Assembly (NCBI GenBank): GCA_965197645.1
Contig: OZ240219.1
Location: forward strand, 384,001-448,000
Length of the DNA stretch: 64,000 nt
Reading direction: 5' to 3'
Source: Dehalococcoidia bacterium
Lineage (GTDB): Bacteria; Chloroflexota; Dehalococcoidia; Plut-88900
This document shows positions 3,285-28,973 of this stretch, piece after piece (positions within the stretch are counted from its first letter, which is position 1; each line of letters begins with the position of its first letter). Under the pieces are notes generated by a model that worked only from the letters and a program-made list of their open reading frames with translations, was not told where the DNA came from and ran no database searches. Position numbers and translations under genes: made by a program.

Positions 3285-3354
3285 CCCTCGAACGGCTTCA
3301 TTCAGCGAGAACGCCCTTCCGGTTGGCACAAGCACGGTGCTGACAAACGCTCTC

Positions 3355-3486
3355 GCGGCCATCCCCCCGCCCCATTCCCGGCCGGGAATGGGGCCGAAAT
3401 AGAGATTGTCTCTGAGGGACACCCTCAGACTCCCGACCCCCAGCAGGCAGTCTCAGAAGAATTTGATTCGCCCCTCTGCACACGCC
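3355..3486. repeat. intergenic palindromic repeat, family A, copy 1
   Basis: catccccc..GAGGGACACCCTCAGACTCCCG..CGCCCCTCTGCACAC shared with 9328-9440 and 16851-16904. Confidence 0.75.
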
Positions 3487-9309: not shown

Positions 9310-9327
9310 CGGGGAACATACACTTTC

Positions 9328-9575
9328 GCGACCATCCCCCTGGCCCCCTTCCTGGCCAGGAAGGGGGGATAGATAAAGAAAGTTTCCGAGGGACACCCTC
9401 AGACTCCCGGCAAAGGGGCTTCGCCCCTCTGCACACCCCTTGTCAAATCAACGCGCATCCACAGTTTGCGGGGTGGGATGGCCGCGGCCATAATCCGGAG
9501 GAGCCGAGAGAGTTTCCCTCTGGCAGCGGGGTTAGGGGGTGCCCCCCAAATTTACCAAACGTCCCAGGGCAGGGG
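9328..9575. repeat. composite palindromic repeat, family A, copy 2
   Basis: cccccttcctggccaggaaggggg palindrome plus gagggacaccctcagactcccggcaaagggg..cgcccctctgcacacccc; the right part (9501-9575) resembles 16921-17000. Confidence 0.8.
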
Positions 9576-16763: not shown

Positions 16764-16785
16764 CGGGCCGCATTTCCGACCTGGC

Positions 16786-17005
16786 TAGATTGCCACGCCC
16801 CGACTTCGTCGGGTCTCGCAATGACGAGGCCGTCGTTGCGAGCGACCGGCGAGGGAGAAACACCTCAGACTGCCGGCAAGGGGCGTCGCCCCTCTGCAGA
16901 CCCCACGTACCTTGACCAGGGAGTCCAGAGGGCTTCCCTCTGGCCGGGGGTTTGGGGGACGTTCCCCCAAGTCCACAATCGTCTCAGGGTGGGTGGGAGG
17001 GAAAA
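16786..17005. repeat. composite repeat: family B-like half plus family A copy 3
   Basis: agattgccacg..ctcgcaatgac, then gaggga..cctcagactgccggcaagggg..cgcccctctgca, then an inverted diverged copy. Confidence 0.7.
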
Positions 17006-17041: not shown

Positions 17042-18370
17042 TTAGACCGGGAGTTCCGATCGATCCTTGACGGTAGGCCCATCGACCGGCTGGGTCAGCA
17101 TCCGCACCGCAGCCCTCAGCAGATCGATTCGCCAGGCCTGCTCATGCTCTGAGGTCAGCTTCGGGTCGCCCAGTGGATGATGGAATCTCCCCTCGGTTCT
17201 GAAAATCCGGTTGGCGCCGACCCTCTCGGCGATGCTGACGAGGGCGGTGATAAGCACCACGGGGATACCGGCCCGTTCGATCTCCTTGGCTAACGTAGCG
17301 CCGCTACGGGTTCCCGTGCCTCAGGTGGCGGTTAGAATCGCCGCCCGGACGTCCCGTGCCTTCATGTCCTCGGCCATTTCGCGCCCGATCCGGGTCATCG
17401 TCTTGATGTTGGCCATGTTCCCGGTGGTGACGTAGTAGTGGTCGGATAGCCGGCTGATGACGCCTGTTTTCTCCAGGAACCGAGCGGCATCGAGAGGCAC
17501 GGTACGATCGGGTGCATCGTTGGTGCCGCTGGTGTCACAGCCGCCGTGCCACGCCTCGTAGTCGCCCCGCCTTAGACTGTTGAGACCCTTGATCGGATAC
17601 TTGAGCCACTTGGACGCGTTCCAGGTCTCCAGCCTGTCGGGGTTGCCTGAAGGCACGAGACCTGACTCGGTGACCAGGGCCACAAGGCTGCGGCTGAGGT
17701 CTGCTATCTCAGGCGCCGGGGGTACGTTGTCGAAATCGGGAATTGGCAGCTCTGTGCGGTACGAACGTCCATCAAGCTTCGCCAGCAGCATGTTCGCGGC
17801 CCGCTCGGCGGCGCCCTGCTTCACCCTTACGTTTCGCCGGACGCCCCGGGGGAGGTACCCCTCGTCATCGGCCGGTCCGATCTCAACACCGCGGCCGAGT
17901 TTAACGACGAAGTCGGCCAGCCTGGGTAGAGCGTCGTTCATCGATGCTGCCGTCGGGCTGGTGGGCAGGATGTAGACGTCCTCACGGAACAGCTCGACGC
18001 CCGGGTTATTGACGTTCATCGCCGTCACCGCGGGCTTGCCTCGTTGCTGCAAGGCTTGAGCAATCGCTCCGCAGGCCGTGCCATAACGACCCGAGTTGAA
18101 GGCGGGTCCGGCCGCCAGCACGTCGGCAGGATGAGAGTCGGCCAGGGCTATGAGTCGACTTGTCGCCTCATCCTGGTTCTCGATGAAGTAGTTGTCGCCG
18201 CAGACCAGCGTCCCGGTGATAGTGGCCCGGTCGGCAAGATGCTTGGCCAGGCCGACGCCGGGCCCGACGGGGCCGGGACGGTACTGGGGAGGAGCGTCCG
18301 CATGGTCCTCGCCTCCTATGCCGCCGAAGAACTGGTTTACGTAGTGGATAACGGTGATTTCGTGATTCAT
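17042..18370 (-). CDS. grdB: glycine/betaine/sarcosine reductase component B, selenoprotein subunit (GrdB-like); Sec at UGA 17321-17323; 442 aa
   Basis: HYVNQFFGGIGGE, GPAFNSGRYG; homology continues in frame through the TGA: LTAT-U-GTGTRSGATLAKEIERAGIPVV..VGANRI..HPLGDP. Confidence 0.92.
17288..17320 (-). promoter_or_regulatory. putative bacterial SECIS hairpin
   Basis: CGUAGC-GGC-GCUACG stem-loop with a G-starting loop 18 nt downstream of the UGA. Confidence 0.65.
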
Positions 18371-18385
18371 GCTAAATTCCCAGCG

Positions 18386-19678
18386 CTAGAAATCCCTGGC
18401 GGTAAAGCCGTTGGTCTGCATCATCCAGAAGCCGGCGTACATCTCGTGGGCGCTGAGGGTGAGACTGCCAGACGCCCGGAGGCGGTGGCCCCACTCCTCG
18501 TTGGAGCTGAAGACCAGCTCCTCGCCTCCAACCACCCGCTTCATCCCGGGCACGGTGAACTGCCTGTCGGCGCCTCCGCCGGAGACTATCGCATCGGCTT
18601 CGCTAGCGTAATCCACAATCGGCCAGTCCCTCCCTTCGATACCACCCAGCTCATGCACCATCTGGACGGTCTGCACCCCCGAGCTCTCCAGTGCCTTAAC
18701 GCTCTGCATGAAGTCCACCCAGGTATTGCCGGTGCCCTCCAGAGTCATCACCGCGCCCTTGACATCCAGCATTCTGGCGACGTTTGCGACCATGTAGCCG
18801 TTCCTCTCCTTGAGCTCATGGTCGTCGTGGTGTCCACGGCATAGTATCACCCCTGCGAAGTCCAGGTCTCGGCCGTGGCGGCTGTACAGGTCCCGGATCA
18901 CGGGATGGTTCAGGCGTAGCCACGTTGGGACCTTCATCATGTTCCGGTAGTTGCCGCTGACCACGGCGCCGTCGAAGTACTCGTTGGGGTGCAGTACCGT
19001 GGGCGCCAGCGAGGCTACCGGCTGGCCGTACAGAAAGGTCTGCACCAGAAACCCCTGCTGCTGCACCTGGTCGACGTAGGCCACCCTGGGCAGGACCGGG
19101 TCTACGTCACCAAGCTCGAACTGCTCAATCTCATCGGGGTCCGTTGCGCTGGTGGCGACCTCGGCAAGGTGCTGTGAGACGCGAAGGCTGCCCATGCGAA
19201 TGGCGTTCTCGAACTCCTCGTTGGTGGCACCACGGCGAGGGGTAAACACCAGGGCGAGGTTATGGGTGTCGGAGCAAGCGGAGAGCTCGGCGCCCGGTCC
19301 GCTCATATCTATGATGCCCTCATTGAACTCCAGGATCCCGCTGGTCGGTTCGGGGAGCCGGGCCGATTGCAACACCGCCAGTCCCTTTAGTCGACGGGTC
19401 ACACCGGCGCCTACGGTGCGGGCGGGCCCCAGAAAGCCGGGGAAGGCGACGGTATCCTCGGTAGCCTTGATGCGGGGCTCGATGGCGTCCAGGACGTGGA
19501 TGATGCGGGTCTCTTCCCCCGGCGAGGCCAGCTCTATCCGAACATCCGATACGGAGTCGTCGTACCTGGCGATCCGGGACACCTCTTCCCGGTCGATGAT
19601 GAGGGCGCCGTTGACCAGGCGGGTCTCGGGACCGAACTGAAGAGCATCGACAGAATAGCTTTCAAGCCGCAGCTTCAA
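18386..19678 (-). CDS. glycine/betaine/sarcosine reductase component B, alpha/beta subunit (GrdE/GrdI-like)
   Basis: DAIEPRIK, EGIIDMSGPGA, PTVLHPNEYFDGAVVSGN, NHPVIRDLYSRHG, EGTGN; adjacent to grdB. Confidence 0.9.
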   Translation of the reverse strand: MKLRLESYSVDALQFGPETRLVNGALIIDREEVSRIARYDDSVSDVRIELASPGEETRIIHVLDAIEPRIKATEDTVAFPGFLGPARTVGAGVTRRLKGLAVLQSARLPEPTSGILEFNEGIIDMSGPGAELSACSDTHNLALVFTPRRGATNEEFENAIRMGSLRVSQHLAEVATSATDPDEIEQFELGDVDPVLPRVAYVDQVQQQGFLVQTFLYGQPVASLAPTVLHPNEYFDGAVVSGNYRNMMKVPTWLRLNHPVIRDLYSRHGRDLDFAGVILCRGHHDDHELKERNGYMVANVARMLDVKGAVMTLEGTGNTWVDFMQSVKALESSGVQTVQMVHELGGIEGRDWPIVDYASEADAIVSGGGADRQFTVPGMKRVVGGEELVFSSNEEWGHRLRASGSLTLSAHEMYAGFWMMQTNGFTARDF

Positions 19679-19714
19679 GCCGCTCCTCCCGTTGGTGTCA
19701 TGACTGCTCCACGG

Positions 19715-20464
19715 CTACAGAGCGGTAAAGCCGCCATCGATGACCAGCTCCGAGCCCGTCACGTAGGACGACTCATCGGACGCCAGGAAGAGGATGGCGT
19801 TGGCCACCTCCTCGGGTGTGCCAAACCGTTTCATCGGCACGGCATCGATGTACTTCTGATGGTAACGGGGATTCGCCTTTATCGGGTCCATCATGGGAGC
19901 GTCTATCGGGCCTGGATGCACCGAGTTGGCTCGAATACCGTTCCGGGCATACTGTACGGCCGTCGACTTGGTCAGGTTTCGCACGGCGGCTTTGGAGGCG
20001 CCGTAAGCAGAGCCGGTGGCCGAGCCCAGGATGCCGCCGACCGACGAGAGGTTGACGATGGACCCGGCGCCCGCCTCGATCATCTCCGGAACGACGTACT
20101 TGGTGCCGAGGAACACCCCCTTGGCGTTCACCTCCATGATGCGGTCCCAGTCCTCGCTGCTGGTATCCGCCACACGGTCCCGCTTGATGATTCCGGCGTT
20201 GTTCACCAGCACATCCAGCTTGCCGAAGCGGTCGAGTGTCGTGCGCACCGCCGCTTGCCAGTCCTCTTCGCTGGTGACGTCCAGCTTGAAGAAGGTGACC
20301 TGGCCGCCGGACTCGGCGATCTCCTCGGCCAGCTGCTGCCCTTCCGTCTCCAGCACGTCGCCGATGGCGAGGCTGGCTCCTTCCCTGGCGAAGAGCTTGG
20401 CCTCGGCCGCGCCGATACCCCTGGCGCCACCGGCAATCAGGGCCACTTTGCCTTCGAGTCTCAT
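19715..20464 (-). CDS. short-chain dehydrogenase/reductase
   Basis: GGARGIG, NNAG, YGASK; GGAGG RBS before ATG 20464. Confidence 0.93.
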   Translation of the reverse strand: MRLEGKVALIAGGARGIGAAEAKLFAREGASLAIGDVLETEGQQLAEEIAESGGQVTFFKLDVTSEEDWQAAVRTTLDRFGKLDVLVNNAGIIKRDRVADTSSEDWDRIMEVNAKGVFLGTKYVVPEMIEAGAGSIVNLSSVGGILGSATGSAYGASKAAVRNLTKSTAVQYARNGIRANSVHPGPIDAPMMDPIKANPRYHQKYIDAVPMKRFGTPEEVANAILFLASDESSYVTGSELVIDGGFTAL

Positions 20465-20474
20465 GGCGTGCCTC

Positions 20475-21638
20475 CTAGTCCTCCTTGAGAGCGGGGATGA
20501 CCTCACTGCCAAGTAGCTCGATGGAACGCATGGTCGCCCGGTGGGACATGGCGCCGCACTGGGCCTCCAGCATCAGAGAGCCGATGCCGAGCTGGCGCTT
20601 GATGTGCAACAGCTTCTCCGTGACGGTGTCGGGCGTCCCCACGATGATGCGGTAATCGTCCTGAAGCTCCTGGTAGCTCATCTTCTGCAGCGGTACGGTC
20701 TTACCACCCGTGCTCTTGGCCGAGTTTATCACCGCGCTCTTCCTGCCGGCCCTGCTCAGATATCCGGGTGGAGCGAAGTACTCCCGCGGGCCGAGCAACG
20801 GTCCCCGCATTCGCCACATGATGTGCCTACCCTCCTCTTGGGCCTTCTCCTCGGTGTCGTTGACGTGACAACAGACCATGAAGGCGAATTTTTCCGGGCC
20901 TGCCTCGATACCCTCTTCGGCGGCATAGTTGCGATAGAGGTCAAACAGGCCCTGGGCAGTCTCCAGCGACGTCAGGAAGGCGGCGTAGGTGTAGCCCCGG
21001 CGAGCGGACCACTCAACCGTCTCGGGACTGCCCGTGCCCGGCGTCCAGATGGGCGGGTGGGGCTTCTGCAAGGGCAGCACCCAGGGGTTGACCACGCGGA
21101 AATCGAAGTGGTCACCCTCCCATCGAAAGGGTCCGGGGGTAGTCCAGGTTTTGACCATCAGGTCGTGCGCCTCTTCGAACCGCTCCCGGTTATGTACGGG
21201 ATTGGTGTTGGTGGCCCAGCTTTCGACTCCCAGGCCCCGCACGATGCCCGAGATCAATCGGCCCCCCGAGATAAGGTCCACCATCGCTATCTCTTCCGCC
21301 AGGCGCACCGGATTGTCCGTCGTCGAGATCAGGTTGCCCAGTATCAGGATCTTCGCCCGGGTGGTCATCCGCGCCAGGATGCCGGCGATCACGTTCACCC
21401 CGACGTTCATGCAGGAGCAGCTGTTGTGGTGCTCGTTGATCATCAGACCATCGAAACCCACCTCGGCGGCGTACTGGTACTCGTCCAGGTAGCGCTGGAA
21501 CAGGCCCTGAGCCGTTGGGGCATCAAAGTAAGTGTTGGGGAAGGTCAGGCGCATGGAGGGATAGTTGTCGGCTTCCGACTCGTCGAACTCGGCGTAGGGC
21601 ATTTCGCTGAACCAGTAGACGTCCATACCGGTCTCCAT
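20475..21638 (-). CDS. LLM class flavin-dependent oxidoreductase/monooxygenase
   Basis: GFDGLMINEHH, NPVRLAEEIAMVD, PLQKPHPPIW. Confidence 0.9.
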   Translation of the reverse strand: METGMDVYWFSEMPYAEFDESEADNYPSMRLTFPNTYFDAPTAQGLFQRYLDEYQYAAEVGFDGLMINEHHNSCSCMNVGVNVIAGILARMTTRAKILILGNLISTTDNPVRLAEEIAMVDLISGGRLISGIVRGLGVESWATNTNPVHNRERFEEAHDLMVKTWTTPGPFRWEGDHFDFRVVNPWVLPLQKPHPPIWTPGTGSPETVEWSARRGYTYAAFLTSLETAQGLFDLYRNYAAEEGIEAGPEKFAFMVCCHVNDTEEKAQEEGRHIMWRMRGPLLGPREYFAPPGYLSRAGRKSAVINSAKSTGGKTVPLQKMSYQELQDDYRIIVGTPDTVTEKLLHIKRQLGIGSLMLEAQCGAMSHRATMRSIELLGSEVIPALKED

Positions 21639-21651
21639 TCAGTAAGTGCGA

Positions 21652-22437
21652 TCAGTCCAGAAAGCCCAATACCGTACGAACGAACTCGTCCGGCTTCTCG
21701 ATCTGGGGTGAATGGCCGCAGTTCTCGATGATCGATAGCCTGGCGCCGGGGATGGACCGCTGGTACAGCTCTCCGCAGTTCAGAGGCACAATACGGTCCT
21801 CTCGACCCCAGACGATGAGGCTGGGCACGTCGACCCGTTGCAGAAGGCCGGGGAGCCGGGGATCGTGCATGTAAGGCTTCCAGCAGAGGCGCACGGCCAT
21901 CTCCCGGTTTGACTCCTGGGTCTGCTTCTCCTCATCGGTCAGGGTGCGTTCGTACAGCTCGCTCCACTCCGGGACCTGGCCGGGATCGAAGAAACCGAGC
22001 TGAGCAACCTGTTGGGGGGTAATGAGAAAGACGTCGGCGATTTCCCCCTCCGTGGGTTTGATACCCACGGCGCCCACCAGCACCAGCCGCTCGAGATTAT
22101 GGGGGCACATAACCGCCATCTCGGCTGCTATCCACCCGCCCATGGAGAAGCCCATAAGCCGGACCCTGTCCAGATTCAGCCGGTCCAGAAACCAGAGGTA
22201 GAAGCAGGCCATATCGGGAATGGTCTCGAGCCACGGGGGTCTTTGAGATCGATCATAGCCTGGGTGAGAGGGGACATAGAGGGTGAATCTCTGGGCGAGG
22301 GCCTCGTTGTACTTGCGCCATCCCCGGTGTCCTCCTGCGCCGTGGAGGACCAGCAGGGGCTCTCCGACGCCGCCCTTCATGAAGTGGACCTCGGAGCCAC
22401 CGATGTTGACCTGTTCTTCGCGCCACTCTACCGTCAT
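21652..22437 (-). CDS. alpha/beta hydrolase
   Basis: LHGAGG, GFSMGG nucleophile, WGRED, CGHSPQIE. Confidence 0.9.
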   Translation of the reverse strand: MTVEWREEQVNIGGSEVHFMKGGVGEPLLVLHGAGGHRGWRKYNEALAQRFTLYVPSHPGYDRSQRPPWLETIPDMACFYLWFLDRLNLDRVRLMGFSMGGWIAAEMAVMCPHNLERLVLVGAVGIKPTEGEIADVFLITPQQVAQLGFFDPGQVPEWSELYERTLTDEEKQTQESNREMAVRLCWKPYMHDPRLPGLLQRVDVPSLIVWGREDRIVPLNCGELYQRSIPGARLSIIENCGHSPQIEKPDEFVRTVLGFLD

Positions 22438-22459
22438 TATCCGTCTCTTTCCCATCGCC

Positions 22460-22587
22460 CTCGGGGCATCTCTTCTCAGTCGATGCCAAGGTCGCCATCG
22501 GCCAGGCCGGTCTTGGATACGCCGATACCCCCGGCACTACCGGCTATCAAGGCTACTTTCCCTTCGGGTCTCATGGCAAGCTTCCTA
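22460..22587 (-). pseudogene. decayed copy of the LLM stop codon and SDR 5' end
   Basis: 22521-22587 aligns with 20411-20477; reads MRPEGKVALIAGSAGGIGVSKTGLADGDLGID*. Confidence 0.8.
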
Positions 22588-22863
22588 GCGCTTGTTGGGA
22601 TCGGGGATTACGTCTTTTCCCAGCAGGCCATCCGATAGCATTCTATCAATTCGGTGAAGGGGTACATCGACCATGATGTTGTCGGTCATGCCGTTGTTGG
22701 CCAGTCTGGTATGGAGATACTCGGTCTCCTCCTGGCTAACGACCCCGTCCGAGATCACGCCCCTGGCAAGCCTAATCAAAGTGTCCATTTGCCAGTTGTT
22801 GATGCGGGACGAGGAACGGACCAATCCGGCAAGCTCCTCATCACAATAATAGACGGCTATCAT
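22585..22863 (-). CDS. hypothetical protein; probably a truncated N-terminus of a TerB-like/BRCT-associated protein
   Basis: DTLIRLARGVISDGVVSQEETEYL..RIDRMLSDG pattern (recalled similarity, not searched). Confidence 0.5.
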   Translation of the reverse strand: MIAVYYCDEELAGLVRSSSRINNWQMDTLIRLARGVISDGVVSQEETEYLHTRLANNGMTDNIMVDVPLHRIDRMLSDGLLGKDVIPDPNKR

Positions 22864-22883
22864 TACATCTGTTCTCTTGCTGC

Positions 22884-23828
22884 CTACGGTCCTGGCGGAT
22901 CCAGGGGTATTCCGTACATCGAGTCCGGCTTCAGCCTCGCCGCCTCCGACCCGGGTAGAGGTCGGGACGTCCTGGGCGTTCTGGACGTTCTGGGTGTCTT
23001 AGGCGGCAGGACCGGACCGAGCATGGGTGGAAGAGGCCCCTTGATGCGCCTCAGCAGGTAGGCTGTGAGGAACGCCCCGATGGCCGGCACCCCGACGGCT
23101 ATCAGGATGCTGAACATTATGAAGCCCATCTCCAGCCATTGCCGCAGGAAAAAGACGATGTCGTAACCAGGATAGAACCATAGCCACCTCATCACGGTCA
23201 ATATCCCGAACAGCAAGGCGATCGTCTTCCACGGTATCCGGTCGGTCTCCTTCATTCGCACGGCGCCCCAGACGACCACCAGTGTCCCGCAAAGGCTGAG
23301 AACGTCTAGGATGATGGCCCACTCCATATTTCCAAATCTCAACCACAGCAATGAATAAGGATAGTGCCAGCTTGGGCCTGTGACCAGTGCGAGAAACGGT
23401 AGTATCCGGCTGTAGTGCCGTCCCGTGTAGGTGGCGGCAAAGAAAAACATCCCGAGAAAGTTCATTGCTACCAGAATCCACCATATTGTTGAATAAATGT
23501 CGGACCCCAGTGACTCCGAACGTGAAACGTACCTGACGTTTTGCGCAGCAGACAGCGCCAGTAGGTAGAGATCGTAAGCGACGAAGTAAGCGAGGAACCT
23601 CTGCCGTACCTTGACCAGCACGGCTAGCAACACGATAGATGGGACAGCCATCTCCAGGTTCAGCACCAGCGTGAACAGCGCACTATTGGTCCAAAACCAG
23701 CGTACTGGCCAAAACCATGTCTTTGCATCAAAGACGAAAGAGACCAGGAGAGGCACGGCGAGCACTGTCACCACAGGCCAGAGGTACTTCCTACGCCTCC
23801 TGACGATGAGTTGCATCCGTCTCATCAT
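22884..23828 (-). CDS. hypothetical multi-pass membrane protein with Pro/Arg-rich tail
   Basis: Many hydrophobic segments; AGGAG RBS; AT-richer than the flanking operon. Confidence 0.7.
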   Translation of the reverse strand: MMRRMQLIVRRRRKYLWPVVTVLAVPLLVSFVFDAKTWFWPVRWFWTNSALFTLVLNLEMAVPSIVLLAVLVKVRQRFLAYFVAYDLYLLALSAAQNVRYVSRSESLGSDIYSTIWWILVAMNFLGMFFFAATYTGRHYSRILPFLALVTGPSWHYPYSLLWLRFGNMEWAIILDVLSLCGTLVVVWGAVRMKETDRIPWKTIALLFGILTVMRWLWFYPGYDIVFFLRQWLEMGFIMFSILIAVGVPAIGAFLTAYLLRRIKGPLPPMLGPVLPPKTPRTSRTPRTSRPLPGSEAARLKPDSMYGIPLDPPGP

Positions 23829-23886
23829 TCTCCTACCTTAGAGCCGTAGTCTTGCCGGGATGCTCCTCTCGACCCTCGTGAAGGGA

Positions 23887-24285
23887 ACCAGCAGGGGCTC
23901 CCCAACCCCACCCTTCATCTTCCTCTCCCTTCCTACTCTTCCTCCTCGTTGGAGGACGAGCCGGACTGCCTGGAGTCGATGTTGACTTGATCTTCTCTCC
24001 ACTGTACCGCCATTATCCGTCTCTTTCCGATCGAATTCGGGGCATCTCTTCTCAGTCGATGCCAAGGTCGCCATCGGCCAGGCTGGTCTTGGATACGCCG
24101 ATACCCCTGGCGCCACCGGCTATCAGGGCCACTTTCCCTTTGAGTATCATGGCGTCCTCCTAGTCCTCCTTGAGAGCGGGAATGACCTCACTGCCCAGCA
24201 GCTCGATGGAACGCATATTCGCCTGGTGGGACATTCGCCGCGCTGGGTCTCCAGCATCAGGGAACCGATACCAAGCCGGCGCTTG
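23887..24285 (-). pseudogene. decayed duplicate of LLM 3' end, SDR 5' end and hydrolase 5' end
   Basis: 24097-24285 aligns with 20411-20600; 23887-24160 aligns with 22349-22587 apart from a pyrimidine-rich insertion. Confidence 0.85.
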
Positions 24286-24455
24286 TGGGTGACGGGGTCT
24301 CGGCCCAGGTCAATGGCGAGCTGCTCGAGGCGTCCGGGGGATCTGCGTGTAATGGTAGTCATGAGGAGATTACATGCGATTCTCCCCATCAGCTATGAGA
24401 TCAGCGCACCATAGCCGCTTTCCTTCCACCCCACCCACTCCCAGGCATCGGACTA

Positions 24456-25139
24456 CTATTCCTCCCCGGATGTGAGGATTTCGAGGATTTCCGTGTGCCC
24501 TCGCCATGCCGCTTCGCTGACTGCCGTATTACCATCCGGGTCAGCCGCCAGTGGGTCAGCTCCGGCCTTGATCAATGCCCTGACGACATCTTCATGACCC
24601 CGCCATGCCGCCTCAATCAATATCGGGCTATCGTCAGCATCAAGAGCGTTGGGGTTGGCCCCTGCATCTAGGAGGATTTGTACGATCTCCGCATCCCCCC
24701 GCCACACAGCCTCATAGATGACCGGGTTCCCATCTGAGTTACGGCCGTTAACGTCCGCGCCCGCGGCGACCAATGCCCTCACTGCATCAGCATTTCCTCT
24801 CCAAACGGGCTCGTTCAGAATCGCGTCTCCCTCAGCGTCCGTAGCATCCGATATCGAAGTCCGTGTGGCCGTCAGGTCCGGGGACGGTGTGGCCGTCAGG
24901 TCCGGGGACGGTGTGGGCGTCAGGTCTGGGGACGGTGTGGACGTCGGGTCTGGGATCGGTGTGGACGTCAGGTCTGGAGACGGCTCCGGAATAGACGTGG
25001 GTGTGGGGTCGGAGGGGAGAGCTAGGGGCACCGTCGGTTCGGAGTCGGATATGGTTAACACCACCACCACCACTAAGGCCGCTATGAGGCCAAGAAACAG
25101 GGACAGCGTGACTGCGATAACAGGTTTCGATAAGTTCAT
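24456..25139 (-). CDS. membrane-anchored ankyrin-repeat protein
   Basis: N-terminal TM helix, Pro/Thr linker, four repeats of (E)AAWRG(H/N)xEIVxxLLxAGADxN. Confidence 0.88.
   Translation of the reverse strand: MNLSKPVIAVTLSLFLGLIAALVVVVVLTISDSEPTVPLALPSDPTPTSIPEPSPDLTSTPIPDPTSTPSPDLTPTPSPDLTATPSPDLTATRTSISDATDAEGDAILNEPVWRGNADAVRALVAAGADVNGRNSDGNPVIYEAVWRGDAEIVQILLDAGANPNALDADDSPILIEAAWRGHEDVVRALIKAGADPLAADPDGNTAVSEAAWRGHTEILEILTSGEE
24863..24982. repeat. five tandem 24-bp repeats encoding PSPDLT(A/P/S)T
   Basis: gtgtggccgtcaggtccggggacg units start at 24863, 24887, 24911, 24935 and 24959. Confidence 0.9.
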
Positions 25140-25324
25140 TTGATGGTCTCTTTCACCGGCTTGCCAGCCGGAACACTCAGAATGGGACTGACCGCCTCCT
25201 GGAGCGTCGCGTAGTTTATGCCCCTAGTCCCTCCATTGCAACTGCGCGTGTATAATGGGGGCATGGTGACCCTGAGCGCACCCAAGGTCTTGCGCAGTTT
25301 CTCGTATCGTTCATCGTCAGCCAT
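25136..25324 (-). CDS. hypothetical small protein or gene fragment
   Basis: AAGGAG RBS before ATG; stop overlaps the ankyrin gene start; no recognisable family. Confidence 0.35.
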   Translation of the reverse strand: MADDERYEKLRKTLGALRVTMPPLYTRSCNGGTRGINYATLQEAVSPILSVPAGKPVKETIK

Positions 25325-25345
25325 CTTCTTCTCCTTGCAGTGTGC

Positions 25346-25600
25346 CTACTTTCCGTACATAGCTCGGAATTCGTAGGAGTCTATCTTTAACAGAACAGCT
25401 ACGAGCATGTTGTTGCGCTGACCCTGGCTCGTGATGCTCACAACAACATAACCAGGAGAACGATTTAACATCTCTTCTAGTAGCTCTGCGTCTCTACTTT
25501 CTGCGGAGAACATACCTGTATCGTGAGCCTGTACGACCTTCCAAGTTGGAGGTTCACCCGGTCGTCCAGGCGGTCTAGGCGGATCCCGATACAGTGCCAT
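25346..25600 (-). CDS. hypothetical protein, 84 aa
   Basis: AAAGGAG RBS; AT-richer sequence. Confidence 0.55.
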   Translation of the reverse strand: MALYRDPPRPPGRPGEPPTWKVVQAHDTGMFSAESRDAELLEEMLNRSPGYVVVSITSQGQRNNMLVAVLLKIDSYEFRAMYGK

Positions 25601-25628
25601 CTCTTACTCCTTTCAAATCGTCTCTGGC

Positions 25629-25745
25629 GAGGATCAGCGGGGGCTCTCCAACCCCGCCCTTCATGAAGTGGACCTCAGAGCCTCCGATGTCCACCTGTTG
25701 TTCGCTCCACTCTACCGTCATTGCTCGTCTCTCTCCGGTCGCTCC
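25629..25745 (-). pseudogene. third copy of the alpha/beta hydrolase 5' end
   Basis: MTVEWSEQQVDIGGSEVHFMKGGVGEPPLIL vs MTVEWREEQVNIGGSEVHFMKGGVGEPLLVL. Confidence 0.85.
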
Positions 25746-25857
25746 GGGCCATCCCCATCCGGTCGTCTCCGGGCCCACCATTGTATCAACCTCTATCAAA
25801 CGGGCCATCCCCCTTGGAACCGGGGCTTATAATGGGGCAGTATCCGTCCCACCAACC

Positions 25858-27390
25858 ATGAGCAATCTAGACATACAGGCCAGCTGGTCTTACCACAACA
25901 GCACCAAGCACTCATACGAGAGCCTGCGAGCCCAGGCCCACCACCTGGACTGGCCCAACCAGCCTGTGCCCTTCAAGATCTACAAATCGCTGGATGGGAT
26001 GCCCCTGGGCCTGGAGATGGAGTTCACCAACGTCCCCGCGCTGGAGGTGATCTCCTCCCCACCCATGTCTCCCGAGAAGGAATCCGTGCCCGATCTGGCG
26101 ACCCTTGCCCAGCTCCTTCACCTTTCGGCGGGCATAACCAAGCGCAAGGACTACGGCAACGAGATGCAGGTCTTCTTCAGAGCGGCGGCGTGCACCGGCG
26201 CCCTCTATCACATCGATCTCTACCTCGTCTGTCGCGACCTGCCGGGGCTGGAGGCCGGGGTCTACCACTTTGCCCCCAACGATTTCTCGTTGCGTAGGCT
26301 CCGGGAGGGCAACTACCTGCCTCTGCTGGCCCGGGCCGCCGGAGACGAGACCTCTTTGATGGGGGCCCCGGCGGTGATCGTGTGCGCCGATACGTACTGG
26401 CGCAACTCGTGGAAGTACCGGGCGAGGGCCTATCGCCACACCTTTTGGGACAGCGGGACGCTGCTAGCCAACCTTCTGGCCGTAGCGTCGGCCCACCGTA
26501 TGCCCGCCAGGGTCATATCGAGTTTTGTCGATGAGACGGTAAACCGGTTGCTGGGCCTCGATGGAAAGCTTGAGGCTGCTCAGGTCCTGGTGCCCATCGG
26601 GTCGACGACGCCCATCGAACCCGCAGATACGGACCCCCTGGACCAGCTGGAGTACGAGATTGAACCGCTGTCCAACAGCGAGGTGGAGTACCCCGCCATC
26701 TACGAGATGCACTCGGCCTCGTCCCTCCATACCGGGGAAGAGGTGGCCGAGTTGCAGGGGAAGCGTTTGGAGCTTCCCGTAGACAACCCGGTGGGCCCTC
26801 TGTACCCGCTCCATGACGAGTCGGTGGAGGGCCGGGGCATAGAAGAGACGATCGTTCACCGAGGCTCCACCAGGCGATTCGCTCGTGACAGCATCACCCT
26901 CGACCAGCTTTCCGCGATTCTAAGCACCGCGGCCGAGCCGGTGGACGCCGACCTTCTGCAACCCTACGGCGCTACGATGAACCATCTGTACCTGATAGTA
27001 AACGCCGTCGAAGGTCTGGACAGCGGCGCCTATCTCTATCATCGGGACCGGAGGGCGCTGGAGCTGCTAAGGAAGGGCGACTTCAGGGACAGGGCGGGCT
27101 ACCTGGGGCTGGAGCAGGAGATACCGGCGGATGCCAGCGTCGACGTGTTCTTTTTGGCCGATCTGGACTCGGCACTGGCGATGTATGGCAATCGGGGCTA
27201 TCGCATGGCCCAGCTGGAGGCGGGAGTCCTGGGGGGCAGGCTGTACCTGGCGGCCTATGCTCAACGGCTGGGAGCAAGCGGCCTCACCTTCTACGACGAC
27301 GAGGTGATAGAGTTCTTCTCACCTCGTGCCGAAGGTATGAGCGTCATGTTCCTCGTCGCCCTCGGCAAATCGGTGCGGCGAAAAGAGTAA
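25858..27390 (+). CDS. SagB/ThcOx family tandem nitroreductase-fold dehydrogenase
   Basis: RAAACTGALY, WKYRARAYRH..WDSG, RGSTRRF, RGYRMAQLEAG; start at ATG 25858. Confidence 0.88.
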   Translation: MSNLDIQASWSYHNSTKHSYESLRAQAHHLDWPNQPVPFKIYKSLDGMPLGLEMEFTNVPALEVISSPPMSPEKESVPDLATLAQLLHLSAGITKRKDYGNEMQVFFRAAACTGALYHIDLYLVCRDLPGLEAGVYHFAPNDFSLRRLREGNYLPLLARAAGDETSLMGAPAVIVCADTYWRNSWKYRARAYRHTFWDSGTLLANLLAVASAHRMPARVISSFVDETVNRLLGLDGKLEAAQVLVPIGSTTPIEPADTDPLDQLEYEIEPLSNSEVEYPAIYEMHSASSLHTGEEVAELQGKRLELPVDNPVGPLYPLHDESVEGRGIEETIVHRGSTRRFARDSITLDQLSAILSTAAEPVDADLLQPYGATMNHLYLIVNAVEGLDSGAYLYHRDRRALELLRKGDFRDRAGYLGLEQEIPADASVDVFFLADLDSALAMYGNRGYRMAQLEAGVLGGRLYLAAYAQRLGASGLTFYDDEVIEFFSPRAEGMSVMFLVALGKSVRRKE

Positions 27391-27647
27391 CCGGACCGGC
27401 TAACCTGCAACGGCGGCCTCTGTACGCAAGAGCGAAATGGAGTACCCCCCGTTGGTATCCTGACGTTGTTGCCTAAGGAGACCACTACTGCCGGTTAGGT
27501 GGTCAAACATGGCGTCAAATAAGCCGCCACAGTATTGACCTGACAAACCTCATTTGGTATCTTGCACGCATGTATTAGCTCCTGATTCTGCGTCAATGAA
27601 TGTACCATATATGTGGCCAAGTAGTGAGTCAATGAGAGGCAGCGACG

Positions 27648-28856
27648 TTGGATGCCAAGAGATTTTGGGATGAGTTTCACTTTGACTATCGACTTGAGCA
27701 AAAAAGAATCTATGAATCTTTGATAACTATAGAGGCTCATAGGCAGACTGCTCAAAATCTTATCCTCGCACCTGAATGGCGTCGACAGCTAGACCGACTG
27801 AACAGGGTACGAGCAGTCCACGGCACAACTGCGCTCGAGGGGAATCCTTTGTCGGAGGCAGAGGCTTCTTATCAAATTGATGTTGTGGATCAGGAAAGTG
27901 ACATGCCGGTAGAGCGCGTAACTAGAGAGCAGCAACAAATCCGGAATGCAGCCAATGCTCAAGATTGGGTAAAGGACCGGTTCACCGCTGACCAACCACC
28001 TGTCCGCCTAAACGATATCCTCACGATGCATAGAATGATTACCAAAGGTTCGGATGAGAACAATAACATCCCCGGTAGACTTCGCTCACAGTCAGTAACA
28101 GTGGGCTCTCCAAACATGGGCGGCGTACATGTTGGAGCTCCTCATGACACTCTGGCTGACCTTATGGAAGAGTTTGTCAGGTTTGTGAACTCGAACCAAT
28201 TCCGTAGCGAACATCCGGTGGTACGAGCACTGCTGGCACACTTCTTCTTGGTGACTATTCATCCGTTTGGCGATGGCAATGGAAGGGTGTCCAGGCTACT
28301 CGAGGCTGGAGTCCTCTTTCAGAACGGATACAACGTCCACGGGTTTTATGGCCTTTCAAACTTTTTTTACAGCAGTGGAGATCAATACAAGACCTTGCTT
28401 CAACAAACCCGCCGGACCCAACCATTTGACGTTACTTCATTCGTGACATTCGGAATAAAGGGATTCGTCGAGGAACTGGAAGGCATAAACAATTTCATCA
28501 AGACAAAAATCAATCGTGTAATGTACCGGCAAATGCTGGTGGCGGCTCTAGGCGAGAAGGTCAGCGAACGCCGCCGAAAGTTAAACGCCAGGGAATACCA
28601 ACTGTTGATCTATCTGTTGAGTGAGACTGAGCCGATAGACCCGTTTTCTGAACAACCGTCCCGTCGAATAGAGTTAGATGAGCTAGTCAACTCTTCGTAT
28701 GTAAGCGGTGCTTATCGCAATGTAACCCGACGAACCTTTATGAGAGAACTTCTTAGATTGCGTGAGATGGAATTTATCAAGGTAGATACTAGTGAGCCGA
28801 ACCGATTCATCATCGAGATCGACTTCGAGGCAATCGCCAAACATCAAATGTATTGA
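27648..28856 (+). CDS. Fic family protein (class II)
   Basis: HPFGDGNGRVSR motif and TTALEGN inhibitory motif; AT-richer; TTGACC-17 nt-TATCTT upstream. Confidence 0.9.
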   Translation: MDAKRFWDEFHFDYRLEQKRIYESLITIEAHRQTAQNLILAPEWRRQLDRLNRVRAVHGTTALEGNPLSEAEASYQIDVVDQESDMPVERVTREQQQIRNAANAQDWVKDRFTADQPPVRLNDILTMHRMITKGSDENNNIPGRLRSQSVTVGSPNMGGVHVGAPHDTLADLMEEFVRFVNSNQFRSEHPVVRALLAHFFLVTIHPFGDGNGRVSRLLEAGVLFQNGYNVHGFYGLSNFFYSSGDQYKTLLQQTRRTQPFDVTSFVTFGIKGFVEELEGINNFIKTKINRVMYRQMLVAALGEKVSERRRKLNAREYQLLIYLLSETEPIDPFSEQPSRRIELDELVNSSYVSGAYRNVTRRTFMRELLRLREMEFIKVDTSEPNRFIIEIDFEAIAKHQMY

Positions 28857-28943
28857 ACTCCTCCCCGTTTTCCTCCTGCCATTCCTCTTTTACCTGCAGC
28901 CTCTCAACCGAGTTTCGCACTTGGCTCAACGTAAGACCTTCGA

Positions 28944-28973
28944 TTGACATTTGCTTCTGCCCGCATGTACAAT
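28944..28973 (+). promoter_or_regulatory. putative sigma70-type promoter
   Basis: TTGACA-18 nt-TACAAT upstream of the thiolase gene. Confidence 0.55.

Follow-up and report, generated by a model that had tools for sequence, protein, structure and literature searches.

Insertion with long target duplication (ILTD) is said to have been described since 2000, reportedly by Nobusato et al. in Gene 259:99. Integrative elements that rebuild the end of their target gene are also known, such as SXT at prfC, and e14 or phage 21 at icd. Here we analyze a 64,000-nt stretch of a Dehalococcoidia genome, hereafter the window (positions 384,001 to 448,000 of contig OZ240219.1, assembly GCA_965197645.1), in which unrelated cargo genes lie between displaced copies of the gene junctions of a minus-strand operon. 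The operon encodes an alpha/beta hydrolase, a luciferase-like monooxygenase (LLM) and a short-chain dehydrogenase/reductase (SDR), and the array preceding it has three junction copies (J1, J2 and J3) and two cargo blocks (A and B). This array is best explained as the scar of a few illegitimate-recombination events within the first 93 coding nucleotides of the hydrolase gene, rather than as a dedicated cassette system. The particular history that we favor, tentatively and at somewhat less than an even chance, is two serial ILTD insertions at one hot spot, with later gene conversion among the copies.

In the ILTD cases treated by Furuta et al. (2010; PMC2853133), the gene blocks have no other mobile element with them and are found between long direct duplications of variable length, which often span a start or stop codon, so that the target gene survives. 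The cases covered there come mostly from naturally competent species, and the mechanism is given as unknown (PMC2853133). The present array resembles these cases in its small blocks without mobility genes, in a GC content below that of the host, and in long, variable repeats found nowhere else in the genome and extending across a translation start. It differs in that two inserts appear to be stacked at the same nucleotide position, the second target including the first scar, and in that the scar includes a rearranged piece, the LLM 3' end with the SDR 5' end, whose source lies 2 kb downstream. In addition, the cargo consists of orphan, ankyrin and membrane genes, not of restriction-modification genes.

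Other described systems share part of this anatomy. For a similar pattern, the same two alternatives, tandem triplication and insertion, have been discussed (PMC3457768). Interrupted tandem duplications have direct repeats split by unrelated DNA and the novel joint typical of tandem duplication, as seen here, but the present locus would need a triplicated 2.1-kb unit plus two 1.3-kb substitutions at the same site. Integrons and integrase-less attC arrays likewise hold co-oriented, promoterless-looking, unrelated small genes behind one upstream region, whereas here there is no IntI, no attC-like repeat is present at the cargo ends, the boundaries are copies of host gene ends, and one boundary falls inside an open reading frame (ORF). 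The accretion of integrative elements would also leave an intact target end beside the newest insert, displaced partial copies beyond it, and a re-used site; the array differs in having no integrase in or near the inserts, inserts of only 1.3 kb, unequal duplications and the rearranged operon piece. Finally, tandem duplications have been found to activate horizontally transferred genes by fusion to a host promoter (PMC6614815, PMC11111574). Duplicated host 5' regions directly upstream of foreign genes are common to those cases and ours, but in the duplications described there the foreign gene itself is duplicated, whereas here the two cargo blocks are unrelated.

Junction copies and their common break point

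The genome is a single 3.21-Mb contig of 60.8% GC, with no N. When 19601-26000 of the window was compared with the whole genome by blastn, three diverged local copies of operon junction pieces were identified, at 80-90% identity, and no further copy of the junction repeats was found elsewhere in the genome. J1 (25629-25753) matches 22345-22470 at 84.9% over 126 nt (E = 4.6e-32), and J2 (23977-24201) matches J3 (22401-22626) at 84.5% over 226 nt (E = 1.2e-64). The intact LLM/SDR junction is matched by J2 (24096-24285 against 20410-20601; 89.6% over 192 nt, E = 1e-65) and by J3 (22520-22614 against 20410-20504; 80% over 95 nt, E = 2.6e-16). Read 5' to 3' on the minus strand, the order is a divergent SagB-like gene, an intergenic region, J1, cargo A, J2, cargo B, and then J3 with the operon (Table 1).

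A preliminary description, made from the sequence without database searches, had reported junction remnants at or next to these coordinates, and the similarities are far beyond chance. Its two finer observations, that both hydrolase remnants break at almost the same codon and that both SDR remnants share an internal deletion and a linker, also stand. In J2 and J3 the SDR remnants have an identical in-frame 24-nt deletion and an identical 15-nt filler ahead of the hydrolase upstream region, and this deletion-plus-filler core is the same at 66 of 68 positions. LLM sequence is retained over at least 126 nt in J2 and over 42 nt in J3. A 32-nt island of the hydrolase 5' end (23887-23918) is preserved in J2 beyond a 58-nt scrambled patch; the same segment is kept in all three copies at 88%, and it is gene sequence, not specific to the junctions.

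The copies are mosaics. Across the LLM-tail/SDR part, J2 has the state of the intact genes and J3 differs at 26 sites, J3 has it and J2 differs at three, and J2 and J3 share a state unlike that of the intact genes at five. This mosaic identity indicates that the copies have exchanged sequence by homologous recombination or gene conversion, so that identity can neither date the events nor give their order. RNA structure z-scores, -1.59 and -0.26 for the junction core and 0.25 for the break, came to nothing.

The homology of J1 to the hydrolase gene ends at 25629, equivalent to 22345, and that of J2 ends at 23887, equivalent to 22349, i.e. 4 nt apart. The shared break lies 93 nt (31 codons) after the start codon of the hydrolase (N-terminus MTVEW). 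No hydrolase homology was found past the break, where the observed score was reached by 417 of 500 shuffles for J2 and by 50 of 500 for J1. The sequences that follow J1 and J2 resemble each other no better than shuffles do, and the right-hand joints of the cargo share nothing. By these alignments, the double use of one nucleotide position in the hydrolase gene, to within 4 nt, holds up. A hairpin (22329-22350) overlaps the point where the J1 and J2 homology stops; such a hairpin is found at 0.8% of genome positions if its start must fall within a 12-nt window, and at 2.4% with a 36-nt window. Another short feature, the heptamer CTGCTGG, is present on the host-derived sides of cargo B, at 22620-22626 (the LLM-tail start of J3) and at 23887-23893 (hydrolase sequence immediately ahead of the break), and a weak similarity to the LLM gene seems to extend 15 nt past it. 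The heptamer could represent microhomology exploited in the rearrangement, or it could be chance.

The arrangement in other strains

Contigs from the best-matching sequencing run (X1), which is possibly the source sample and so not independent, tile the region with no differences and at an even depth of 7.9-9.6. Their only breaks fall within a 47-nt stretch common to J2 and J3 without a mismatch, at 22478-22490 and 24054-24066, which leaves the J2 crossing unbridged. In two other studies, single contigs of X4 (20484-23933, 178 differences) and X6 (20414-24041, 160 differences) run from the LLM gene through the hydrolase gene, J3 and cargo B into J2. Over this LLM-to-J2 stretch both are ~5% diverged from the window, with cargo B and its flanks unchanged. 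The arrangement of J3, cargo B and J2 is real in other strains, and the possibility of misassembly raised in the preliminary description is excluded by these bridging contigs.

Cargo A is also present in X4 (24949-25664, 14 differences). In X6, the depth is only 0.3-0.9 over 25180-25847, and a 1208-nt contig departs from the window sequence at 25772. This strain seems to lack the part of cargo A with the 84-aa and 62-aa ORFs, and some cargo turnover is possible. An apparent back-joint in X4, from 23995 to 22444, does not speak for a circle: ambiguous placement on the nearly identical J2/J3 core explains it best, and the 18 letters between resemble a decayed start region.

Mobility genes and other repeat-flanked inserts

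No integrase, transposase or recombinase domain was detected among the 56 (12 + 44) window ORFs scanned, and there is no IntI-type tyrosine recombinase beside the array (no Phage_integrase domain in the same ORFs). Scans of all cargo ORFs against Pfam, PHROGs and NCBIfam gave no mobility domain. An inverted-repeat search of 22300-25900 (seed 7, distance <=150; no covariance model was used) gave no attC-like hairpin at the cargo ends, its seven pairs lying elsewhere. The hallmarks of a transposon (transposase, terminal inverted repeats and a short target duplication) were not found at the array; its only short repeat is the host-derived CTGCTGG. All of this agrees with the preliminary description, in which no integrase, transposase or attC site had been recognized. 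Elsewhere, the genome has four tyrosine and five large serine recombinases, with four PF00589 matches at 1.67, 1.90, 2.95 and 3.11 Mb. Genes for ComEC and DprA are present, and Ku was not found in the genome; DNA uptake is possible and classical end joining unlikely, which is permissive only.

The genome was then scanned for local direct repeats, in search of further ILTD-like inserts. At C1:523503-525623, a 1347-nt insert (54% GC) with a CAP-domain gene is present between 387-nt repeats of 96.4% identity, which span the 3' ends of two convergent genes, one for an FAD oxidoreductase and one for a CoA-transferase. In 6 of the 6 family loci fetched, the homologs of this pair are direct neighbors with no insert between them. 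By this comparison, the locus is a clear ILTD event. At C1:2700810-2702058, higB/higA (900 nt) lies between 175-nt repeats of 95.4% identity, directly after an AIPR (abortive-infection) gene. These repeats run from 26 nt upstream of a beta-carbonic-anhydrase gene through its first 149 nt, and they rebuild the start of that gene. This is a probable second case, without a demonstrated empty site. No second array of the present kind was found in the genome-wide local-repeat scan.

Other repeat pairs from the scan were discarded. The pairs 1072502/1074058 and 2921138/2926290 belong to a dispersed repeat family of 70-145 copies and were rejected as examples of the same phenomenon, and the pair 190986/192055, probably of the same family, was dropped. 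Members of a dispersed intergenic repeat family of ~100-150 nt are also found in the window, at 3330-3435, 9316-9439 and 16776-16828, and in more than 70 other places, each copy giving 71-145 blastn matches. A different situation is seen at C1:1859445-1860525, where 130-nt repeats (81.5%) flank a gene for a 271-aa lipoprotein. The repeats consist of the 3' end of another alpha/beta hydrolase gene, a spacer and a ribosome-binding site (RBS), and the signal peptide of the lipoprotein resembles that of the next gene; this looks like the remnant of a tandem duplication.

Proposed serial insertion into the hydrolase gene

In the history that we tentatively favor, foreign DNA would have entered twice at the same position of the hydrolase gene, cargo A first and cargo B second, and each entry would have duplicated the stretch upstream of the entry point. 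For cargo A this target would be the 126 nt from -33 to +93 of the hydrolase, and for cargo B the 282 nt from the LLM tail to +93. Since the upstream stretch is duplicated at each insertion, the hydrolase gene would keep an intact start and stay functional, while the displaced older copies, J1 and then J2, would stay upstream and decay. The LLM-3'/SDR-5' piece with the 15-nt filler would have arrived with the first event, either templated locally as filler or left as the joint when a 2.1-kb unit was duplicated in tandem. This scar would then have been copied within the second target duplication, and the longer LLM remnant of J2 would be accounted for because the second target is a sub-segment of J2 that holds the first scar. 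The hairpin at the break could have triggered the hot spot, and gene conversion among the copies would have come later.

Several features argue for serial insertion. Immediately on both sides of each cargo block are direct copies of a single uninterrupted target, which spans the translation start of the hydrolase. The flanking repeats are longer than 30 bp and otherwise unique in the genome, measuring 126 nt for J1/J3 and 226-282 nt for J2/J3. Also in favor are the absence of mobility genes, the foreign composition of the cargo, the clear and the probable ILTD insert elsewhere in the genome, the longer LLM remnant of J2, the overlap of the break with the hairpin, and the mosaic identity that points to gene conversion.

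Several points weigh against it. To demonstrate insertion with simultaneous duplication, an empty-site relative of this locus would be needed, and none was found. A plain tandem duplication of the 2.1-kb unit would produce precisely the LLM-3'/SDR-5' joint, and therefore at least that step may be an ordinary duplication. The number of novel joints is five under serial ILTD and also under tandem amplification. If a simple clock is assumed, the changes private to one copy in the hydrolase part, 22 in J2, 12 in J1 and 5 in J3, are at odds with the entry of A before B, except where gene conversion has played a part. The coincidence of the hairpin with the break is weak, ~1-2% by chance, and no stem of at least 6 bp was found at the borders of the two other ILTD-like inserts in the genome. 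Finally, we know of no established mechanism for ILTD.

Alternative explanations

The most serious alternative, possible although we hold it to be the less likely account, is tandem amplification of the 2.1-kb unit, extending from hydrolase -33 to SDR codon ~38 with the 15-nt filler, after which two of the interiors would have been replaced by foreign DNA. An illegitimate duplication would be followed by the loss of 24 nt from the SDR copy and by unequal homologous exchange to three units, and both replacements would start at the fragile hairpin. SDR 5' end, filler and hydrolase upstream region are joined in the manner classically left by a tandem duplication, and this joint is seen twice, each time with the same deletion. 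Other remnants of tandem duplication are present in the genome, e.g. the 130-nt repeats at 1859445/1860398 and tandem paralog arrays. Redundant copies would also be a neutral landing place. However, neither the hydrolase nor the LLM interior could be traced on the coding strand of either cargo block, in which tblastx against the operon gave no same-strand similarity. The short opposite-strand matches between cargo B and the operon (summed E of 6e-5) are spaced non-proportionally and were provisionally taken as noise. Two independent substitutions with left ends 4 nt apart would also be needed, and more separate events than for serial insertion, which moreover has in its favor that an independent case of insertion with concomitant duplication is known from this genome. 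The anatomy given in the preliminary description is right, and one of its two interpretations, a triplicated unit with replaced interiors, stays a live rival; the other, a cassette or gene-capture system, is not supported.

Accretion in tandem of two small non-autonomous integrative elements, mobilized by a recombinase in trans, with an att site in the 5' end of the hydrolase gene and each element carrying a replacement 5' end, is improbable. It would account for the use of the same site twice and for the 32-nt segment common to all three copies, and the genome does have tyrosine and large serine recombinases that could act from elsewhere. No recombinase is encoded in the window, though, and the copy borne by an element would have to hold a rearranged piece of this very operon. 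The duplicated lengths are unequal, 126 vs 282 nt, the ends of the cargo are not discrete, one ORF being fused to the LLM tail, and the repeats are found nowhere else in the genome. Cargo B also has no relative in the genome-collection contig scan or in two viral contig scans.

Also improbable is a recombinase-independent capture platform, guided by homology or by the hairpin, behind the promoter of the operon, with cargo turning over between strains. A break point used twice, at a hairpin, would suit such a platform, as would the co-orientation of all cargo behind the native upstream region, the recombination among the copies, and the reduced depth and departing contig in X6. Against this, cargo B and its flanks are unchanged in the two ~5% diverged strains, there are two units only, and the copies are decaying (80-90% identity, scrambled patch), not maintained. 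In a close strain one "cargo gene" is disrupted, and the local-repeat scan gave no second array. The cassette-like system proposed in the preliminary description is not supported, on related grounds: the 64-kb window has no recombinase, the cargo ends have no attC-like inverted repeat, the repeats are restricted to the locus, a cargo end cuts through an ORF that takes its stop from the LLM gene, and one "cargo gene" has a stop codon in a close strain. That description had taken identical cargo in all relatives as the pattern that would speak against capture; this is partly the case, cargo B and its flanks being the same in X4 and X6, and the cargo A side of X6 may differ. A dedicated capture system is unlikely.

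An assembly artefact, whether a repeat-induced misjoin or a chimeric contig, has next to no probability: the X1 short-read contigs do break inside the stretch common to J2 and J3 and give no J2 bridge, but the repeats are 80-90% identical and not identical, the genome is one contig with no N, the X1 tiling is even and free of differences, and the single X4 and X6 contigs cross J3 and cargo B into J2.

Cargo genes and neighborhood

The cargo is compositionally distinct, as the preliminary description had indicated: the GC content of its ORFs is 0.50-0.60 compared with 0.62 for the operon, and the GC content at third codon positions is 0.47-0.71 compared with 0.77-0.83. Its further statements, that all cargo ORFs are on one strand (the minus strand) and that most have an RBS (RBS-like purine runs precede the 84-aa, 62-aa and membrane ORFs), also agree with our analysis. 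Cargo A and cargo B have nothing in common.

In cargo A, no homolog of the 84-aa ORF was found. The 62-aa ORF had been listed as a cargo gene; the reading frame exists, but in a ~98% identical strain (X4) every one of the 5 listed changes is protein-altering and one introduces a stop at codon 8, and it is probably not a gene. The ankyrin-repeat protein has a homolog (73% aa identity) at an unrelated locus of G006, a genome of another genus of the family. Five 24-nt tandem units at 24839-24982 (48-nt copies at 24-nt spacing) encode a linker rich in Pro, Thr, Ser and Asp in this protein, and the repeat linker of the G006 homolog is longer and different.

In cargo B, the 314-aa membrane protein has two close homologs (89% and 83%), only four clusters match it among 1.84 billion representatives, and among 12 genomes of the order it is present in one, namely the source genome. 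A 35% paralog is encoded in the same genome at 3056743-3057582; this second locus was considered as a target duplication and rejected, its position being a plain one between tandem paralogs. The 92-aa ORF had also been described as cargo, which is mostly correct, but its last 13 codons and stop are the LLM tail, so that the right border of cargo B lies inside the ORF. No longer relative of this ORF was found.

Table 1 Coordinates of the array, the operon and its upstream border in the window
Feature	Position	Strand	Remarks
SagB-like (nitroreductase-fold) gene	25858..27390	+	Pfam Nitroreductase, NCBIfam TIGR03605 SagB; forms the native border on the upstream side
Divergent intergenic region (native), presumed promoter region of the operon	25754..25857		Promoter role putative
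J1	25629..25753	-	Displaced copy: hydrolase upstream 33 nt and first 31 codons; still joined to native upstream region
Cargo A	24320..25628	-	~1.3 kb, GC 0.57; 84-aa ORF, 62-aa ORF, ankyrin gene
84-aa ORF	25346-25600	-	No Pfam match
62-aa ORF	25136-25324	-	No Pfam match; doubtful gene
Ankyrin-repeat lipoprotein-like gene	24456-25139	-	Pfam Ank families
J2, composite junction copy	23887..24319	-	LLM 3', SDR 5', filler and hydrolase 5' pieces
J2 LLM 3' remnant	24160-24285 robust, possibly to ~24335	-	Sequence comparison
J2 SDR 5' remnant	24062-24150	-	Carries 24-nt deletion
J2 filler	24047-24061	-	15 nt
J2 hydrolase upstream and 5' remnant	23887-24046	-	Includes 58-nt scrambled patch
Cargo B	22627..23886	-	1.26 kb, GC 0.56; 314-aa membrane protein and most of 92-aa ORF
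314-aa multi-pass membrane protein	22884-23828	-	No Pfam, NCBIfam or PHROG match
92-aa ORF	22585-22863	-	phrog_3989 (uncharacterised phage protein family), E 2e-7; weak TerB-like lead
J3, junction copy fused to intact operon	22345..22626	-	LLM tail, SDR 5', filler, hydrolase 5'
J3 LLM tail	22585-22626	-	Now C-terminus and stop of 92-aa ORF
J3 SDR 5' remnant	22486-22574	-	Same deletion as J2
J3 filler	22471-22485	-	15 nt
J3 hydrolase upstream and first 31 codons	22345-22470	-	
Perfect inverted repeat in hydrolase gene	22329..22350		7-bp stem, 8-nt loop
Intact operon hydrolase-LLM-SDR	19715..22455	-	Pfam
Alpha/beta hydrolase	21652-22437 (ORF to 22455)	-	Pfam Abhydrolase_1
Luciferase-like monooxygenase (LLM)	20475-21638	-	Pfam Bac_luciferase
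SDR	19715-20467 (ORF to 20512)	-	Pfam adh_short_C2

At the upstream border, the preliminary description had the SagB-like gene start at 25594, giving a 598-aa ORF to which relatives align over ~513 of the 598 residues. This ORF is over-extended, its first 88 codons (25594-25857) being antisense to J1 and the intergenic region, and the ATG at 25858 is most likely the start. A sigma-70 scan of 25754..25857 gave no site. On the minus strand, a terminator scan found no site between the blocks except a weak one within the membrane gene. All of the cargo is on the same strand as the operon, between it and the native upstream region, so that cargo and operon would plausibly be transcribed together from that region. 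No Rfam family was found anywhere in the window, and none of the 10 sequencing runs that contain the locus is an RNA run. Beyond the SagB-like gene there is an AT-rich island at 27450-28950 (GC 0.44-0.51 compared with 0.61), which has a gene for a 402-aa Fic-domain protein (27648-28856) and ends before a thiolase-like gene; it has no flanking direct repeats.

Relatives of the locus were sought in genomes and metagenomes. The 11 family genomes have only a paralogous hydrolase-LLM pair at 42-47% identity and no orthologous locus, and the six loci with the best hydrolase-LLM matches, in one sister genus, again have only this 42-47% paralog pair. The surroundings of SagB-like orthologs, at nine loci in seven family genomes, carry neither the operon nor any cargo (0 of 9). 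From metagenomes, 151 relatives were confirmed and 80 kept, and 54 loci of at least 4 kb were examined. The best metagenome relatives are 60-65% identical and have another upstream gene. Among the 54 loci, the hydrolase-LLM pair is conserved in 25, and none gives a tblastn match to any of the five cargo proteins at E <= 1e-10. In 19 of the 54, a second LLM paralog (44-48%) precedes the hydrolase gene and a 59-70% LLM follows it. Of ten window proteins looked up by exact match, one was found, in the window's own record.

Downstream of the operon on the minus strand are genes for a GrdB-like and a glycine-reductase-like protein (17321-19678). Two distant metagenome relatives, L058 and L067, also have GrdB-like and glycine-reductase-like genes within 2-3 kb after the hydrolase-LLM pair. 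Because these neighbors are shared, the downstream side of the operon seems to be in its old context.

Implications

Two ILTD-like inserts that appear to be stacked at the same nucleotide, in a hairpin, together with a clean single event elsewhere in the genome that has empty sites, offer concrete material with which to ask whether such insertions are set off by a structured or fragile site. A stronger form of this idea, which we regard as rather unlikely, is that the hairpin (hydrolase codons 30-37) and the duplicated 5' segments would form a recombinase-free landing pad for repeated ILTD, with a co-transcribed stack of accessory genes behind the operon promoter, whose units could be gained or lost between strains as the junction copies undergo homologous exchange. 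If the array is only a decayed tandem amplification, it would be an ordinary scar of genome evolution. Under serial insertion into the hydrolase gene, the locus would mean that accessory genes can pile up before a metabolic operon with no enzyme from a mobile element taking part, and that in a lineage poor in classical mobile elements.

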